23,844 nucleotides of DNA from a virus (IMGVR_UViG_2531839668_000007), one strand, 5' to 3'. Positions 11,658 to 18,977 are shown, numbered from the stretch's first letter. Made by a program: numbers and translations. The notes: a model not told the origin generated them from the letters alone.

Positions 11658-12617
11658 ATGAAAAAAAGTGTCATCGCTGGCGTCTTTATTGCTCTGTCAT
11701 TTACCACGTGTTCAGCTATCGCGAACAGCCTTGCATTATCATTAGCAAATGATGATGCAGGGAAGTTTCAACCAATACTTAATGATATTTATGGCAATAA
11801 ACATGAAAACAGAGATGATTACTCACAAGGCTTATTTCTGGGATATAGCCACGATATCTCAGACTCGAGCCAATTATCTCTCCATATTGCGCAAGATATT
11901 TACTCTCCATCAGGCAGTAATAAAAGACACAACACAGCTGTAACTGGAGACAGAGCTTTTAGTGCATACACTCACACTGGTATTGAATGGAACTCCCTTG
12001 CGAATGACTGGATTCGCTATCGATTAGGTACTGACATAGGTGTTGTTGGCCCCGACGCAGGCGGTCAGAAAGTACAAAATAAAGCTCATGAGATTATTGG
12101 GGCAGAAAAATATCATGCATGGGATGATCAAATAGAGAATCGCTACGGTTATACTGTAAAAGGGATGCTATCCATGACACCAAGTATGGATATTTTAGGT
12201 GCTAATGTTGGATTATACCCTGAAGTTTCTGCTGTTACTGGAAACTTATTTCAATATGTAGCATATGGCGCAACCATTGCCATTGGTAATGATAAAACCT
12301 TCAATTCGGATAATGGCTTTGGTCTGCTGGCTCCCCGTGGTTTAATGCATATGTCCGATACAAGCGGATTCAAATACAAGATTTTTGCAGGTATGGAAAG
12401 ACGAGATGTCAATCGCAACTATACTCTCGAAGGAAAAACAATACAGACGAAACAAACAACAGTATCGCTAAACAAAACTGTTGATGAATATCAAGTTGGC
12501 GCAACAATTGGGTATGCACCTGTAGCCTTCACACTAGCATTTAATAAAGTAACATCAGAATTCAAGACAGGGGATGACTATTCATTTATAAATGGAGCAA
12601 TCACCTTCTTTTTTTAA
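11658..12617 (+). CDS. lpxR: Outer-membrane lipid A 3'-O-deacylase LpxR
   Basis: 319 aa; N-terminal signal peptide (MKKSVIAGVFIALSFTTCSA), C-terminal aromatic beta-barrel signature (...INGAITFFF). Matches Salmonella LpxR over its whole length as I recall it (ANDDAGKFQP, HIAQDIYSPSG, GDRAFSAY, TGDDYSFINGAITFFF). Shine-Dalgarno sequence AAGGAAG upstream; AT-rich; opposite strand to flanking phage genes. Confidence 0.85.
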   Translation: MKKSVIAGVFIALSFTTCSAIANSLALSLANDDAGKFQPILNDIYGNKHENRDDYSQGLFLGYSHDISDSSQLSLHIAQDIYSPSGSNKRHNTAVTGDRAFSAYTHTGIEWNSLANDWIRYRLGTDIGVVGPDAGGQKVQNKAHEIIGAEKYHAWDDQIENRYGYTVKGMLSMTPSMDILGANVGLYPEVSAVTGNLFQYVAYGATIAIGNDKTFNSDNGFGLLAPRGLMHMSDTSGFKYKIFAGMERRDVNRNYTLEGKTIQTKQTTVSLNKTVDEYQVGATIGYAPVAFTLAFNKVTSEFKTGDDYSFINGAITFFF

Positions 12618-12662
12618 CTGAATTGAATTCAATCAAAATAACATAAGTCCAACAAAAACATA

Positions 12663-12828: not shown

Positions 12829-13494
12829 TCATGCGCCTTCTCCCTGTACCTGAATCAATGTGAGGTTTCCGCAGAACACTGCGCCAGTATCGATATACAT
12901 CTGGTTGGCAAATTTGAGTGGTTTCACTGCTGGCGTATGACCAAAGATGAACGTGTCCGCGCCTTTGATTTCTTTCACGATCCCGTCTTGTGAGTTGCCG
13001 ATTCGTTCGCGGTTCCAGATTACCTGCTGAGGATCAACTGGCTTTCCAAATTCGTATTCGTTACAAGGATAATCGGCGTGGCAAATGACATATTTTTTAT
13101 CTTTGCTCACCAGTTCGATGATTAACGGAAGTTCTTCTGCTTTATGGGCAAGAACTTTAGCCAGAGTCTCTTTGTCGTAATCGAGATTAAAGAACCAGCC
13201 ACCGCCATTAAGCAGCCAGTGATTAACGTTTCCACGCTCTGATAAGCCATCAATCATCATTTGCTCATGGTTTCCACGCACAGCTCTGAACCAGGGGAAT
13301 GTGATTAATTCCAGACATTCGACGTTCTCTGTACCGCGATCAACCAAATCGCCAACCGAGATGAGCAGGTCTTTTTTGGTGTCGAATCCAATCGTATCCA
13401 GTTTGTTCATCAGGTTCGTGTAGCATCCGTGCAGGTCGCCAGCTACCCAAATATTTCGGTATTTGCTGCCATCAATTCTTTCGTAGATATTCAT
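12829..13494 (-). CDS. Lambda-type Ser/Thr protein phosphatase (lambda orf221 / PPase homolog)
   Basis: 221 aa; phosphoesterase motifs GDLHG, GDLVDRG, GNHE; near-identical to lambda phosphatase as recalled ([30 protein letters not shown]...). The ATG overlaps the ninG stop. Confidence 0.9.
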
Positions 13495-13952
13495 GCAGCC
13501 TCACTTCTGCTGTTTCGCAGGTCTTTGAGTTTCTGTTGGTACTCTGCCTTGATCGCCTTGCACTCTTCGACAGTCCAGCGATGGCGGTTATGGTTTGATT
13601 CGATTTCGTCTACTGCTTCCTGCCCGATGCGGCTAATCAGTTCGACGCGATACGGAACGAGATTTCCGCTTTTGTGCTGGTTGCACACCACGCATTGCTT
13701 GTGAATATTGCGTTCATCAAATCGGAGTTGAGGTGCCGCAGCAGTTGTCCGGTAATGTCCGGCATCCCACTGAGCAGACGTGAGCGTTCCGCACGAGATA
13801 CATGGTAAGTCGCGGTCTCTTTCTCTGATGAAGGCGTTTACGGCTTGTTGGGCTTGTTTAATCCAGTAACTGCGGGGCTTTAAGGCGAGTTTTCGAATCT
13901 TAAGTTTATCTTTCTGTTTCTGCTCCTCTCGTCGTCGTTTCTTCTCTGCTGC
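13491..13952 (-). pseudogene. ninG: ninG 3' fragment (N-terminal ~50 codons missing, no start codon)
   Basis: The minus-strand frame is open from a TAA (plus 13953-13955) and reads [153 protein letters not shown], matching lambda NinG from about residue 50 to the end as recalled. The ORF-track start at 13691 is simply the first in-frame GTG. Confidence 0.8.
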
Positions 13953-13954
13953 TT

Positions 13955-14149
13955 AACGATGAAACCATGCAGGAGATTAACACTCTGCTGATCGCCCTGG
14001 ATAAAACATGGGATGACGACTTATTGCCGCTCTGTTCCCAGATATTTCGCCGCGACATTCGCGCATCGTCAGAACTGACACAGGCCGAAGCAGTGAAAGC
14101 TCTTGGATTCCTGAAACAGAAAGCCACTGAGCAGAAGGTGGCAGCATGA
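13955..14149 (+). pseudogene. bet: bet (Red-beta) 3' fragment, last ~64 codons only
   Basis: Reads [64 protein letters not shown], matching the C-terminus of lambda Bet as recalled. Homology starts 2 nt from where ninG homology ends on the other strand. The stop overlaps the exo start as in lambda. Confidence 0.8.
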
Positions 14150-14826
14150 CACCGGACATTATCCTGCAGCGTGCCGGGATCGACGTGAGAGCTGTCGAAC
14201 AGGGAGATGATGCGTGGCACAAATTACGGCTCGGCGTCATCACAGCTTCAGAAGTTCATAACGTAATAGCAAAACCCCGCTCCGGAAAAAAGTGGCCTGA
14301 CATGAAAATGTCCTACTTCCACACCCTGCTGGCTGAGGTTTGCACCGGTGTGGCTCCGGAAGTTAATGCTAAGGCGCTGGCCTGGGGAAAACAGTACGAG
14401 AACGACGCCAGAGCCCTGTTTGAGTTTACTTCCGGCGTGAATGTTACTGAATCCCCGATCATCTATCGCGACGAAAGTATGCGCACCGCCTGCTCTCCCG
14501 ATGGTTTATGCAGTGACGGCAACGGCCTTGAACTGAAATGCCCGTTTACCTCCCGGGATTTCATGAAATTCCGGCTCGGTGGTTTCGAGGCCATAAAGTC
14601 GGATTACATGGCCCAGGTGCAGTACAGCATGTGGGTGACGCGAAAAGATGCCTGGTACTTTGCCAACTATGACCCACGAATGAAGCGTGAAGGCCTGCAT
14701 TATGTCGTGGTTGAGCGGGATGAAAATTACATGGCGAGTTTTGACGAGATGGTGCCGGAGTTCATCGAAAAAATGGACGAGGCACTGGCTGAAATTGGTT
14801 TTGTATTTGGGGAGCAATGGCGATGA
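14146..14826 (+). CDS. exo: Lambda exonuclease (Red-alpha)
   Basis: 226 aa; near-identical to lambda Exo as recalled ([40 protein letters not shown]...GFVFGEQWR). Confidence 0.9.
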
Positions 14827-15005
14827 CGCATCCTCACGATAATATCCGGGTGGGCGCGATCACTTTCGTCTACTCCATTACAAAGCGAGGCTGGGTATTT
14901 CCCGGCCTTTCTGTTATCAGAAATCCCCTGAAAGCACAGCGGCTGGCTGAGGAGATAAATAATAAACGGGGAGCTGTATGCACAAAGCATCTCCCGTTGA
15001 GTTAA
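14823..15005 (+). CDS. Small early protein, lambda orf60a-like (60 aa)
   Basis: The ATG at 14823-14825 overlaps the exo stop (ATGA) and gives 60 aa; position and size match lambda orf60a downstream of exo. The ORF-track start at 14817 is an alternative. Confidence 0.5.
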
Positions 15006-15169
15006 GAACGAGTATCGAGATGGCACATAGCCTCGCTCAAATTGGAGTCAGGTTTGTGCCAATATCAGTAGAAACAGACGAAGAATTTCATACGTTAGCC
15101 GCATCCCTTTCACAAAAGCTGGAAATGATGGTGGCGAAAGCAGAAGCAGATGAGAGAGACCAGGTATGA
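14978..15169 (+). CDS. Small early protein, lambda orf63-like (63 aa)
   Basis: 63-aa ORF overlapping the previous gene by 28 nt, as lambda orf63 overlaps orf60a; product identity inferred from position and length only. Confidence 0.45.
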   Translation: MHKASPVELRTSIEMAHSLAQIGVRFVPISVETDEEFHTLAASLSQKLEMMVAKAEADERDQV

Positions 15170-15249
15170 CAACCACTGAATGCATTTTTCTGGCAGCGGG
15201 CTTCATATTCTGTGTGCTTATGCTTGCCGACATGGGGCTTGTTCAATGA
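15166..15249 (+). CDS. Candidate 27-aa hydrophobic peptide, translationally coupled on both sides
   Basis: ATG at 15166-15168 overlaps the upstream TGA (ATGA); its own TGA at 15247-15249 overlaps the downstream ATG 15246-15248 (ATGA). Product MTTTECIFLAAGFIFCVLMLADMGLVQ is one TM-like helix. Alternative model: a 93-aa ORF from the ATG at 15180 in another frame. Confidence 0.3.
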   Translation: MTTTECIFLAAGFIFCVLMLADMGLVQ

Positions 15250-15461
15250 CACCTCAGCAAGAAAACGCCCTTCGCAGCATTGCCCGTCAGGCTAATTCTG
15301 AAATCAAAAAAGCCAGACAGCAGTTTCCGGATAAAAACGTCGATGACATTTGCCGTAGCGTACTAAAGAAGCACCGCGAAACGGTAACGCTGATGGGATT
15401 CACACCGACTCATTTAAGCCTGGCGATCGGCATGTTGAACGGCGTCTTTAAGGAACGGTGA
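15246..15461 (+). CDS. Hypothetical early-region protein (71 aa)
   Basis: ORF with a Shine-Dalgarno-like GGGG about 9 nt upstream of the ATG at 15246; hydrophilic, lysine-rich. Could instead start at 15180 (93 aa). Confidence 0.4.
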   Translation: MTPQQENALRSIARQANSEIKKARQQFPDKNVDDICRSVLKKHRETVTLMGFTPTHLSLAIGMLNGVFKER

Positions 15462-15482
15462 ACATGAAAAGCAAAATCATCA

Positions 15483-15505
15483 GGGAGCTACAGGCTCCTT
15501 TTTTA
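15483..15505 (+). terminator. Rho-independent terminator inside the early-left gene string
   Basis: GGAGC-TACAG-GCTCC followed by TTTTTTATTATT on the + strand, directly after the 15461 stop and before the TraR-like gene. Confidence 0.5.
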
Positions 15506-15559
15506 TTATTCGCATTCACCCTCAAGCGTATTAACCAACAATTCAGGGATTAATGAAAG

Positions 15560-15781
15560 ATGGCAGACATAATTGATTCAGCATCAGAAATTGAAGAATT
15601 ACAGCGCAACACAGCAATAAAAATGCGCCGCCTGAACCACCAGGCTATATCTGCCACTCATTGTTGTGAGTGTGGCGATCCGATAGATGAACGAAGACGA
15701 CTGGCCGTTCAGGGTTGTCGGACTTGTGCCAGTTGCCAGCAAGATCTGGAGCTTATCAGTAAACAGAGAGGTTCGAAGTGA
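15560..15781 (+). CDS. TraR/DksA-family C4 zinc-finger protein (73 aa)
   Basis: CCECGDPIDERRRLAVQGCRTCASCQ is a CxxC-17-CxxC arrangement with the conserved RRxLA(V)P-like core typical of phage TraR-like proteins. Confidence 0.65.
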   Translation: MADIIDSASEIEELQRNTAIKMRRLNHQAISATHCCECGDPIDERRRLAVQGCRTCASCQQDLELISKQRGSK

Positions 15782-16185
15782 GCGAAATTAACTCTCAGGC
15801 ACTGCGTGAAGCGGCAGAGAAAGCCGGTGAAGATAAGTGGCAGGCTAAAAAAATAAATGGTGATTTTTTCGTTATTCGTCACGGTAGTTATACAAGACAG
15901 CATGGCTACACATCGTATCAACCCATTGCGGAGATTGATTGTAAGCCAGTCCGGGATTTTGTTGCCAAGGCTAATCCGGCTACCGTGCTGGAATTACTGG
16001 ATGAACTGGAAGCAGCAAAAAAGCGCATTGCAGAACTGGAAGCGCGGGAAATACTGCTCCCGGAACGTAGCAGCATGCTTCATCGAACAGATTTTCACGA
16101 TGATTACCAAACGGTAATGGCATACAAAGTTTCTGAAGTCATCGATGCAATCCGCGCTACTGGCATTCGCATCAAAGGAGAGTGA
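15778..16185 (+). CDS. Ead/Ea22-like protein (135 aa)
   Basis: C-terminal coiled-coil segment NPATVLELLDELEAAKKRIAELEAREIL resembles the Ea22-like family signature as recalled. Start overlaps the TraR-like stop; its own stop is 1 nt before the next gene's ATG. Confidence 0.45.
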   Translation: MSEINSQALREAAEKAGEDKWQAKKINGDFFVIRHGSYTRQHGYTSYQPIAEIDCKPVRDFVAKANPATVLELLDELEAAKKRIAELEAREILLPERSSMLHRTDFHDDYQTVMAYKVSEVIDAIRATGIRIKGE

Positions 16186-16186
16186 G

Positions 16187-16942
16187 ATGATTCACTACCA
16201 CGGTGGGCCTATTACTCCTGATACGTGCGCAATGAGAGCATGGAAAGGGCGACATGCGTTTATCAGTTTTGCGCATTCAGGCCAGATCAATCTCGCGGCT
16301 GAATACTGTCAGTCGTTCGCGCTGGACAACGGTGCATTCACCGCCTGGAAAGCAGCTGGCAAAAACAAAATCGACTGGAGCGATTACTACGAGTTTGTTG
16401 CTCGCTGGAAGAATCACCCAGGATTCGATTTTGCCATTATCCCGGATGTTATTGATGGCGGAGAGGAGGAAAATGATGCGCTTCTGAATGAGTGGCCTCA
16501 CGGAAAACTAGCTGGCGTTCCAGTGTGGCACATGAATGAAAGTGACGAGCGATTTATTCATTTGTGCAATGAGTTTCCGCGAGTGGCTATCGGTAGTTGT
16601 GGCGACTATGACGTAAAGCGCCCAACTCTTGCGGTAGCCAGAATGAAAGACCTGATTCGTCACATTGTTGATGGGCATGGTCAGCCGGTTACGAAACTAC
16701 ATGGATTGCGCATGTTAAATCCGCTGATATTCACAAAATTACCCTTAGCCAGCGCAGATAGTACGAACGTCGCTCGAAACATCGGTATTGATAAAGCCTG
16801 GTCTGGGGCTTATGCACCTGCAAGTAAAGAGACACGCGCAGCATTAATGGTAGAACGGATTGAGGCACACAATAGCCCTGGTTCTCTTGCGTATTGTGAA
16901 CAACGCGACCGCTTTGAAATGCAATTGCAACTAGCAGTTTAA
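16187..16942 (+). CDS. Candidate TGT-fold base-exchange enzyme (DpdA-like, 251 aa) lacking a zinc subdomain
   Basis: ATG at 16187 with Shine-Dalgarno AGGAG at 16175-16179. Four segments line up in order and spacing with remembered E. coli Tgt motifs: LDNGAF with TDSGGF (catalytic Asp region), DFAIIPD with DIVMIFD, RVAIGSCGD with GYAVGGLAVGE, and LHGLRM...ADSTNVARNIG with YLMGVG...FDCVMPTRNARNG. No CxCxxC...H zinc site. Assignment is by eye, not by search. Confidence 0.4.
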   Translation: MIHYHGGPITPDTCAMRAWKGRHAFISFAHSGQINLAAEYCQSFALDNGAFTAWKAAGKNKIDWSDYYEFVARWKNHPGFDFAIIPDVIDGGEEENDALLNEWPHGKLAGVPVWHMNESDERFIHLCNEFPRVAIGSCGDYDVKRPTLAVARMKDLIRHIVDGHGQPVTKLHGLRMLNPLIFTKLPLASADSTNVARNIGIDKAWSGAYAPASKETRAALMVERIEAHNSPGSLAYCEQRDRFEMQLQLAV

Positions 16943-18299: not shown

Positions 18300-18977
18300 A
18301 TGTCCATCATTTTTAATGGACACTATCGTATGAAACACCGGACCTGGATCACTGAAGCTTTACGTCTTCACTTTGAAGAACATTTACCCCGGGTTGTGGC
18401 CGGGCGTCGCCTGGGTGTACCAAAATCAACAGTTTGTAGTATGTTCGTGCGCTTTCGGAGAGCTGGCCTTTCGTGGCCTTTGCCCGCAGGCATGTCGGAG
18501 CAGGAACTTGATGCCTGCCTTTACGGACAATTTTCCACGGTACCAGTCGTACGTCCTGAAAGCACCGTTATATCCGAAGCCCCCGTGGTAAAAAAACGTC
18601 CCCGGCGGCCCAACTTCCCTTATGAGTTTAAAATCGCCTTAGTGGAGCAGTCACTGCAGCCCGGAGCCTGTGTGGCGCAGATCGCCCGGGAAAACGGAAT
18701 CAACGATAACCTGCTCTTCAACTGGCGCCATCAATACCGGAAAGGTGGCCTGCTGCCTTCCGGAAAAAATATGCCGGCACTGCTTCCCGTGACGTTAACG
18801 CCGGAGCCGGATAATAAAATCCCGGCCCCCGCACAGGAACCAGAGCAGATAAATACACCGTCCGACAGTCTGTGTTGTGAGCTGATTCTGCCGGCCGGAA
18901 CTCTCAGGCTTAAAGGTAAACTGACGCCGGCGTTATTACAGACACTTATCCGCGAAATGAAAGGGAGCAGCCACTGA
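18300..18977 (+). CDS. tnpA: IS66-family accessory protein TnpA (orfA)
   Basis: The C-terminal half (RRPNFPYEFKIALVEQSLQPGACVAQIARENGINDNLLFNWRHQYRKG) has the helix-turn-helix region typical of IS66 orfA. The true start may be internal: the N-terminal ~75 aa carry an IS21-like motif (LSWPLPAGMSEQELDACLY) and may not be translated. The stop overlaps the tnpB ATG. Confidence 0.65.
   Translation: MSIIFNGHYRMKHRTWITEALRLHFEEHLPRVVAGRRLGVPKSTVCSMFVRFRRAGLSWPLPAGMSEQELDACLYGQFSTVPVVRPESTVISEAPVVKKRPRRPNFPYEFKIALVEQSLQPGACVAQIARENGINDNLLFNWRHQYRKGGLLPSGKNMPALLPVTLTPEPDNKIPAPAQEPEQINTPSDSLCCELILPAGTLRLKGKLTPALLQTLIREMKGSSH

Follow-up and report, generated by a model that had tools for sequence, protein, structure and literature searches.

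Does the gap that automated annotation leaves between orf63 and orf61 of lambdoid prophages hold a gene of its own? We addressed this question in a 23,844-nt viral contig (IMGVR_UViG_2531839668_000007, hereafter the window, with positions counted from its first letter), in which the Prokaryotic Genome Annotation Pipeline (PGAP) leaves 76 nt unannotated between these two genes of the lambda-type exo-xis block. The 76 nt are exactly spanned by a 27-codon open reading frame (ORF), whose start codon overlaps the stop codon of orf63 and whose stop codon overlaps the start codon of orf61. Comparison of this sequence across phages and prophages leads us to regard the ORF as probably (at roughly 0.7) a genuine protein-coding small gene of the exo-xis (early-left, pL) block, translationally coupled to its neighbors.

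A 27-codon frame overlapping both of its neighbors

The elements that make up the small ORF and its two junctions, including Shine–Dalgarno (SD)-like sequences, are these:

15166–15249, plus strand: 27-codon small ORF, read directly from the sequence, product MTTTECIFLAAGFIFCVLMLADMGLVQ, stop codon TGA at 15247–15249
15166–15169, plus strand: ATGA start/stop overlap of orf63 and the small ORF (orf63 ends GTA TGA, with its stop TGA at 15167–15169)
15246–15249, plus strand: ATGA stop/start overlap of the small ORF and orf61 (orf61 ATG at 15246)
15152–15164, plus strand: SD-like purine-rich stretch, GAGAGAGA at 15152–15159 and AGG at 15162–15164, 5′ of the ATG at 15166
15181–15243, plus strand: hydrophobic, predicted membrane-spanning segment CIFLAAGFIFCVLMLADMGLV, codons 6–26, with a Kyte–Doolittle 21-mer mean of 2.42
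15234–15237, plus strand: GGGG, the sole (weak) SD-like element 5′ of the orf61 start, duplex −4.7 kcal/mol

The ATGA overlaps that had been claimed for both ends were confirmed by direct reading at 15166–15169 and 15246–15249. An open frame with both overlaps is expected by chance at ~0.006 per gene pair. The description of the product as hydrophobic was also borne out: MTTTECIFLAAGFIFCVLMLADMGLVQ has a grand average of hydropathy (GRAVY) of 1.62, and its top 19-residue Kyte–Doolittle window averages 2.33 (residues 7–25), which is above the mean of 1.6 over at least ~19 residues used as a criterion for spanning a bilayer, with D22 included in the run. When these 76 nt were shuffled, 0.3% of the sequences that stayed open were as hydrophobic. 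Apart from E5 and D22 the peptide is uncharged, with no Lys or Arg. Lipoprotein and signal-peptide features were sought at the N terminus, which is acidic (MTTTE) and has no L-[AS]-[GA]-C lipobox before C6 or C16. Protein-family searches with the peptide returned nothing meaningful from Pfam, NCBIfam, PHROGs, PADLOC or PDB, and a tblastn search of phages for distant relatives gave only copies of at least 92% identity, all in E. coli-type phages.

Selection and conservation across the overlapping frames

The same DNA can be read in a second way, because many annotations place orf61 in a 93-aa frame that begins at ATG 15180 and runs through the 76 nt out of register with the small ORF. The two readings predict different patterns of variation. 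We aligned 350 loci drawn from collections of phages, viral contigs, metagenomes and genomes, counted each distinct variant once, and scored the stretch 15170–15245, which overlaps neither flanking gene. Read in the 27-aa frame, the variants comprised 14 synonymous and 14 nonsynonymous changes (S = 18.0, N = 58.0), for a ratio of nonsynonymous to synonymous variation (pN/pS) of 0.31 (P = 0.002); 15 of the 28 fell at codon position 3. For variants seen at least twice (13 synonymous, 10 nonsynonymous) the ratio was 0.24 (P = 7 × 10−4), and counts per locus were 425 synonymous versus 50 nonsynonymous. Read in the 93-aa frame, the same stretch yielded 6 synonymous and 22 nonsynonymous variants (pN/pS 1.08), or 3 and 20 among variants seen at least twice (pN/pS 1.97), and per-locus counts of 459 nonsynonymous versus 16 synonymous, indicating no coding constraint in that frame. 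Taken together, the two plus-strand frames other than that of the small ORF gave values of 0.98–1.08. The synonymous excess expected of a coding gene is therefore found in the 27-aa frame, at a level comparable to that of the neighboring genes in the same data (orf61 0.32, orf73 0.39, orf63 0.43, orf60a 0.46). The original prediction had said what would count decisively against it, namely a 93-aa frame from 15180 that relatives conserve and that varies at its synonymous sites; the comparison was run and came out the other way (0.31 for the 27-aa frame versus 1.08 for the 93-aa frame). A nucleotide-level invariant block at 15213–15225 was set aside, its length lying within chance expectation.

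A 161-nt query spanning the small ORF (window 15130–15290) matched 3,145 of 5,426 complete E. coli genomes, with at least 80% query coverage in 2,913, and a wider, 701-nt query had matches in 180 phage records. Phage lambda itself encodes the identical 27-aa peptide, its two nucleotide differences from the window both being synonymous in the small-ORF frame. The small ORF was intact in 319 of the 321 loci that cover it, and the peptide was identical in 277 of the 321 (86%). Both exceptions are indels, and one of the assemblies concerned (L237) has several other single-base indels in the block. A Q27stop change in four of the 321 loci creates TAATGA, which still overlaps the orf61 ATG, and the other variants are mostly conservative replacements (T3A, F8L, A11V, F15L, A21S and V26I).

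The junctions were equally stable. The small ORF starts with ATG in 207 of 207 loci, and the ATGA overlap with the upstream gene is kept in all of them, across four upstream contexts: three orf63 C termini (GGTATGA, GGCATGA and TGCATGA) and an adenine methyltransferase gene (GCTGCATGA). In the last context, seen in 35 loci, orf63 has been replaced by the unrelated 185-aa methyltransferase gene, the homology to the window restarts at the small-ORF ATG, and the overlap is preceded by a strong GGGAGG SD sequence. At the downstream junction, orf61 starts with ATG in 190 loci and with GTG in 17, where the CAA-to-CAG change is synonymous in the small ORF. Conservation of the frame and its overlaps had been suggested as a check on the prediction, and both overlaps (as ATGA, GTGA or TAATG) were present in every complete copy. 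Intactness of the frame is not informative by itself, the overlapping frames being open too.

Several observations weigh against a coding small gene. The loci differ little in sequence (at least 90% identity), which leaves 28 distinct variants for the selection test. The 93-aa frame is open, with ATG 15180 present, in 207 of 207 copies, and an antisense frame that shares third positions with the small ORF also has a low pN/pS (0.39, P = 0.016), such that sense and antisense are separated by 4 variants versus 0. The peptide is an unusual candidate for a stable single-pass helix: its uninterrupted hydrophobic run, C6–A21, is 16 residues long, and it has none of the flanking basic residues called for by the positive-inside rule. 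Some loci do without the ORF altogether. In a class of 21 E. coli-type loci that lack it, orf61 begins 7 nt after a 250-aa gene and has its own GAGG SD sequence, located 6 nt upstream of orf61 (for example, L116 9795–10770). In Escherichia sp. E1V33 (L007 1435–1716), a 14-nt deletion shifts the ATGA start into the 93-aa frame, replacing the small ORF with a fused 93-aa ORF that is ATGA-coupled behind a 355-aa gene. No small ORF was present beside the distant Orf61 and divergent DUF1382 (Orf63) homologues that we checked. The 27-aa ORF goes unmentioned among the lambda ORFs that PMC8614690 lists as added by ribosome profiling. Finally, the exo-xis block of the window is still intact but without its native promoter: none of N, cI, cro, O, P and pL is present in the window, the immunity and replication region having been deleted. 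With this regulatory head lost, the small ORF is an early-operon gene by homology and is not necessarily expressed in the window.

None of the 5,426 complete E. coli genomes has the fusion found in E1V33; apparent partial matches in them were ordinary alleles. One genome, that of an O111:H8 strain (L112 737–896), has a gene fragment joined to the first 10 codons of the small ORF. In other genera, we found no conserved partnership of the small ORF with DUF1382 or Orf61. Its absence from several orf61 contexts indicates that the gene is lineage-specific and that orf61 is not strictly dependent on it.

Divergent alleles sought in the genome collection were mostly lambda-DNA contamination and near-identical copies; Orf61 proteins of apparently intermediate identity proved to be truncations or indel-ridden assemblies, and searching for the divergent ELA-type end of orf63 returned one contig only, already in the locus set. 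Lambda-identical contigs (some of ~48.4–48.5 kb, all with the seven-A allele described below) occur in assemblies labelled Shewanella, Pseudomonas and Neobacillus (L008–L021), with shorter contigs of lambda type in those bearing the labels Bradyrhizobium, Paenibacillus, Kitasatospora and others. These lambda-like contigs outside E. coli most likely reflect contamination of public assemblies with lambda DNA.

Probable coupling to orf61 and alternative explanations

The SD element of orf61 (−4.7 kcal/mol) is weak compared with those of other starts in the block (−7 to −10 kcal/mol) and with that of a Klebsiella orf61 that has no small ORF before it (−10.3 kcal/mol), suggesting that translation of orf61 probably depends on coupling. 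At the small-ORF start, the duplex with the anti-SD sequence is −5.6 kcal/mol in the window and −10.3 kcal/mol in the methyltransferase context (GGGAGG); the corresponding value in L007 is −9.5 kcal/mol. In the mechanism that we propose, ribosomes finishing orf63 (or the adenine methyltransferase gene) would terminate at the UGA at 15167–15169, re-initiate at the overlapping AUG at 15166, translate 27 codons and terminate at the UGA at 15247–15249. The AUG or GUG of orf61 at 15246, which overlaps that stop, would then be the site of a second re-initiation. The small gene would thereby both yield a hydrophobic peptide and relay ribosomes to orf61, whose ribosome-binding site is weak. The peptide, very hydrophobic and free of basic residues, would most likely insert in the inner membrane as one helix. 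We infer each of these steps, namely translation, termination–reinitiation and membrane entry, from the sequence, and with considerably less confidence than for coding status we suggest that the peptide is no potent toxin but modestly promotes lysis or modulates the host.

If ribosome relay is part of this mechanism, it could in principle be all of it, with the ORF translated only to bridge the 76-nt gap or cover the mRNA and its product functionless and degraded. The weak orf61 SD element and the 17 GTG starts fit such a scheme, as does the character of the exo-xis block as a gap-free chain of overlapping genes; elsewhere orf61 is served by other means, through ATGA coupling to a methylase gene (Klebsiella), its own SD sequence (the 21 loci) or fusion (L007). 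A pure relay, however, asks for no more than a start codon, a stop codon and an open stretch between them, and thus predicts a pN/pS of ~1 and no hydrophobic bias. Neither prediction agrees with the data: pN/pS is 0.24–0.31, synonymous changes predominate 425 to 50 per locus, the peptide is identical in 86% of copies, and its hydrophobic run is matched by just 0.3% of open shuffles. We therefore consider a functionless relay unlikely, and favor a peptide that is itself under selection.

A second alternative is that the plus strand is non-coding and that the wobble bias arises from an antisense ORF, from constraint at the nucleotide level or from chance in a small sample. The antisense frame in question is:

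15048–15233, minus strand: antisense ORF of 61 aa, sharing wobble positions with the 27-aa frame

This ORF is open in 180 of 180 loci with the orf63 context, and the small number of variants (28) lends the chance explanation some weight beyond the antisense signal described above. On the other side, all variants that are synonymous in the antisense frame are also synonymous in the sense frame, and four more are synonymous in the sense frame only, one of which abolishes the antisense ATG. In the methyltransferase context the C-terminal two thirds of the antisense ORF is changed and the sense ORF is not. The antisense ORF would also oppose the direction of the operon and overlap orf63, we found no convincing minus-strand promoter near it, and the region has neither RNA structure nor an Rfam match. 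The antisense ORF probably exists only as a consequence of coding in the sense frame, although its integrity alone is insufficient to decide, and a non-coding plus strand seems to us quite improbable.

Even less probable, in our view, is that the stretch encodes the N-terminal extension of a 93-aa Orf61, as in Stx (Shiga toxin)-phage annotations and structural-modeling papers. The start codon concerned is:

15180–15182, plus strand: ATG of the 93-aa frame, used for orf61 in Stx-phage annotations

Beyond the open frame and the coupled fusion in L007, this form is annotated in many records and represented in PHROG 303. Against it stand not only the absence of constraint in the frame (pN/pS 1.08, or 1.97 for recurrent variants) but also its start, which has a weak SD sequence (−3.8 kcal/mol) and whose ATG is accounted for by codons E5 and C6 of the small ORF (GAA TGC). 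Orf61 homologues of 41–47% identity in Klebsiella and Yersinia phages begin to align at the residue encoded at 15246, and these distant homologues and the PGAP start agree on M23 of the 93-aa form. The homology of the Orf61 family (PHROG 303, or the 71-aa protein) does not extend over the small-ORF segment, with further homologues, beyond those of Klebsiella and Yersinia, likewise aligning from the first residue of the 71-aa form. In the Klebsiella phage ST15-VIM1phi2.1, orf61 is directly ATGA-coupled to an upstream methylase gene, and in a Yersinia phage the homologue follows a 95-nt gap. Structural prediction points the same way: AlphaFold2 gave residues 1–21 of the 93-aa form a predicted local distance difference test score (pLDDT) below 50, versus 68–82 for the helical core, a comparison that carries little weight given a shallow alignment with gaps at residues 1–22, and published AlphaFold and RoseTTAFold models are discordant over residues 1–23 (PMC8614690). 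From these alignments, the conserved Orf61 family is residues 23–93 of the 93-aa form, i.e., the 71-aa protein that starts at 15246. The Orf61 of the lambda and Phi24B literature (61 aa and 93 aa, respectively) shares its DNA with the small ORF in a different reading frame.

A structured RNA or attenuator was rejected because the region, in keeping with a translated mRNA, folds worse than shuffled sequence (z = +1.73) and has no match in Rfam, and a programmed frameshift fusing the peptide to Orf61 was rejected because the sequence contains no in-frame slippery heptamer.

How would a small gene of this kind compare with known ones? The small inner-membrane proteins of E. coli catalogued by Hemm, Storz and colleagues, such as KdpF, YohP, AcrZ and MgtS, were found by comparative genomics and tagging. 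Like them, the predicted peptide is shorter than 50 aa, has one hydrophobic stretch, was missed by annotation pipelines, and is recognizable from a conserved short ORF in its ribosome-binding context; unlike them, it comes from a phage gene, lacks both Lys and Arg, is ATGA-coupled at both ends instead of being initiated independently, and has no family similarity. Type I toxin peptides (TisB, Ibs, ShoB, DinQ, Hok) are 19–50 aa long and usually have a charged or polar tail. The original prediction drew an analogy to small membrane toxins, and a hydrophobic peptide of similar length could by that analogy perturb a membrane, but the small ORF differs in belonging to a polycistronic coupled operon, in having neither a charged or polar tail nor the basic flanks typical of these toxins, and in being intact in thousands of cryptic prophages. 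We found no Rfam small RNA at the small ORF and no convincing promoter nearby on either strand; lacking its own promoter and an antisense RNA, the ORF does not constitute a type I toxin locus. Stop/start coupling through AUGA or UGAUG is familiar from trp and many phage operons, and the small ORF resembles such cases in its 4-nt ATGA at each end, the weak SD element downstream and the recurrence of the motif at six junctions of the block. It departs from them in that two larger genes seem to be bridged by an entire gene, one that is itself under selection at the amino-acid level. Overall, the sequence comparisons point to a real and almost unannotated small gene that belongs to no known family and resembles the single-helix membrane proteins that annotation tends to miss, as well as the neighboring 31-aa bridging ORF. 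If so, the region would clearly illustrate how one small ORF may combine two roles, as a bridge for translation and as the source of a peptide under selection.

Lambda orf61, its literature and the surrounding block

The importance of the small gene would lie mainly in its occurrence in lambda itself and in the different reading of the orf61 literature that follows from it. The lambda reference (NC_001416) annotates a 61-aa orf61 (30839–31024; L003 2040–2225, minus strand) that starts inside orf63 and follows the 93-aa frame. Its early end is due to a run of seven A's in lambda at a point where other phages have six: the A-run at 15305–15310 of the window is A6, and lambda-lineage phages including HK630 and O276 have A7. 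To judge from the sequence, the 61-aa annotation looks like a frameshift artefact hiding the small ORF, the real gene being one of 71 aa that is cut to 29 aa in lambda. The exo-xis literature treats Orf61 as a 61-aa or 93-aa protein and has remarked that the lambda form looks truncated (PMC8614690, PMC6213356). The protein has been modelled in the literature as homeodomain-like.

The overlying lambda orf61 annotation is probably also the reason that the 27-aa ORF was missed. Its description as unlisted stands for PGAP/RefSeq and for phages mEp332, 3W and 4A7, all of which leave 15170–15245 empty and start orf61 at 15246, but not for a few GenBank/UniRef entries in which the exact peptide figures as an unnamed hypothetical or uncharacterized protein; the peptide is encoded on 981 contigs in a large protein collection. 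In Phi24B (vb_24B_7c), 933W, phage 86 and other Stx phages, a 93-aa orf61 covers the stretch in another frame. The peptide string was not found in the literature searched or in the Sakai small-gene supplements. As for the 71-aa protein, NCBI often names it 'cell division protein ZapA', a name that is probably wrong because the sole support we found is a sub-threshold Pfam match (E = 0.014; 16.1 bits versus a cut-off of 23.8).

Published lambda genetics includes a frameshift allele, pGAWorf61_mut, whose position falls within the small ORF:

15217, plus strand: equivalent of the base deleted in lambda pGAWorf61_mut, a C at position 1 of small-ORF codon 18 (PMC4195576, Table 1)

Mapping the mutagenic primer, CTTCATATTCTGTGTG[C]TTATGCTTGCCGACAT, placed the deletion 29 nt 5′ of the real orf61 start. 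The frameshift converts the small ORF into a 42-aa product ending 46 nt within orf61. With this allele, phage development was delayed after induction by mitomycin C and by H2O2 (PMC4195576). The phenotype came from a multicopy plasmid and the annotated orf61 frame is altered as well, which counts against crediting it to the small gene. In the delta-orf61 mutants, the whole annotated orf61 was replaced (PMC6213356), and the small ORF was thus removed too. Because these alleles remove or strike the small ORF, their phenotypes cannot be assigned to Orf61 alone. Attempts to express 'Orf61' yielded insoluble aggregates (PMC6213356), and if the 27-codon gene is real, the constructs may have used a non-native N terminus.

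A broader proposal would be that lambda and most E. coli lambdoid and Stx prophages encode an early membrane micro-protein that has gone unrecognized; that the lambda frameshift phenotype, and in part the delta-orf61 phenotypes (induction timing, lysogenization frequency and host survival), stem from this 27-aa peptide instead of from 'Orf61'; and that the exo-xis block is a gap-free relay in which both bridging ORFs, the second described below, encode functional peptides. We put this forward tentatively, as possible but doubtful. The exo-xis block is among the last poorly understood regions of lambda, and in Stx phages it affects prophage induction and hence toxin release. Should the small gene be real, the reference annotations of the 61-aa orf61 of lambda and the 93-aa orf61 of Stx phages would need correcting, the real Orf61 having 71 aa and being truncated in lambda, and the published orf61 deletion and frameshift phenotypes would be confounded, the lambda frameshift lying wholly inside the small gene.

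The genes surrounding the small ORF in the window are:

14146–14826, plus strand: exo, a gene of the lambda-type exo-xis block
14823–15005, plus strand: orf60a (DUF1317), exo-xis block gene
14978–15169, plus strand: orf63 (DUF1382, 63 aa), PGAP-annotated, Pfam DUF1382 E = 2e-29
15246–15461, plus strand: orf61 homologue of 71 aa (WP_000188870.1), at the PGAP start, with distant homologues aligning from residue 1
15458–15553, plus strand: second bridging ORF, 31 aa, with a GTGA overlap with the orf61 stop and ending 6 nt before orf73
15560–15781, plus strand: orf73 (TraR/DksA family), per PGAP annotation and PMC9239242
15778–16185, plus strand: ea22-like gene of the exo-xis block

With both small ORFs counted, the order from bet′ to a 251-aa gene (13952–16942) is bet′, exo, orf60a, orf63, the 27-aa ORF, orf61, the 31-aa ORF, orf73, the ea22-like gene and the 251-aa gene, and the successive junctions measure −4, −4, −28, −4, −4, −4, +6, −4 and +1 nt. 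As read from the sequence, this forms an unbroken chain of potential translational coupling, in which four starts read ATGAC (Met-Thr).

The 31-aa ORF resembles the 27-aa ORF in its block, size class, bridging position and pN/pS (0.43), and differs from it in being amphipathic or basic and not purely hydrophobic, in overlapping a terminator-like hairpin and in being annotated already in several phage records (mEp332, 3W and 4A7). The intrinsic terminator-like hairpin, at 15482–15500 with a T-run ('t2' of PMC4195576), lies inside the ORF, so translating ribosomes could modulate termination ahead of orf73. According to PMC8614690, ribosome profiling of lambda added ORFs of 7 aa and 31 aa to the exo-xis block, the latter named orf2313. 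The 31-aa ORF is probably lambda orf2313, an identification by size and position, including the presence of a 31-aa ORF there in lambda, because that paper gives neither coordinates nor a sequence.

The window as a whole matches, at 100% identity, a cryptic prophage that E. coli O157:H16 strain 98-3133 carries at its lambda attachment site, ybhC. Within ~13493–14149 of the window, a bet fragment (13952–14149) adjoins an inverted ninG fragment. This degraded prophage also carries the type III effector genes nleH1-1, nleC and nleB2 and an lpxR-family lipid A deacylase gene (1–3741 and 11660–12619), as well as an IS66-family insertion at 18302–20917 (from the PGAP annotation of the identical genome).

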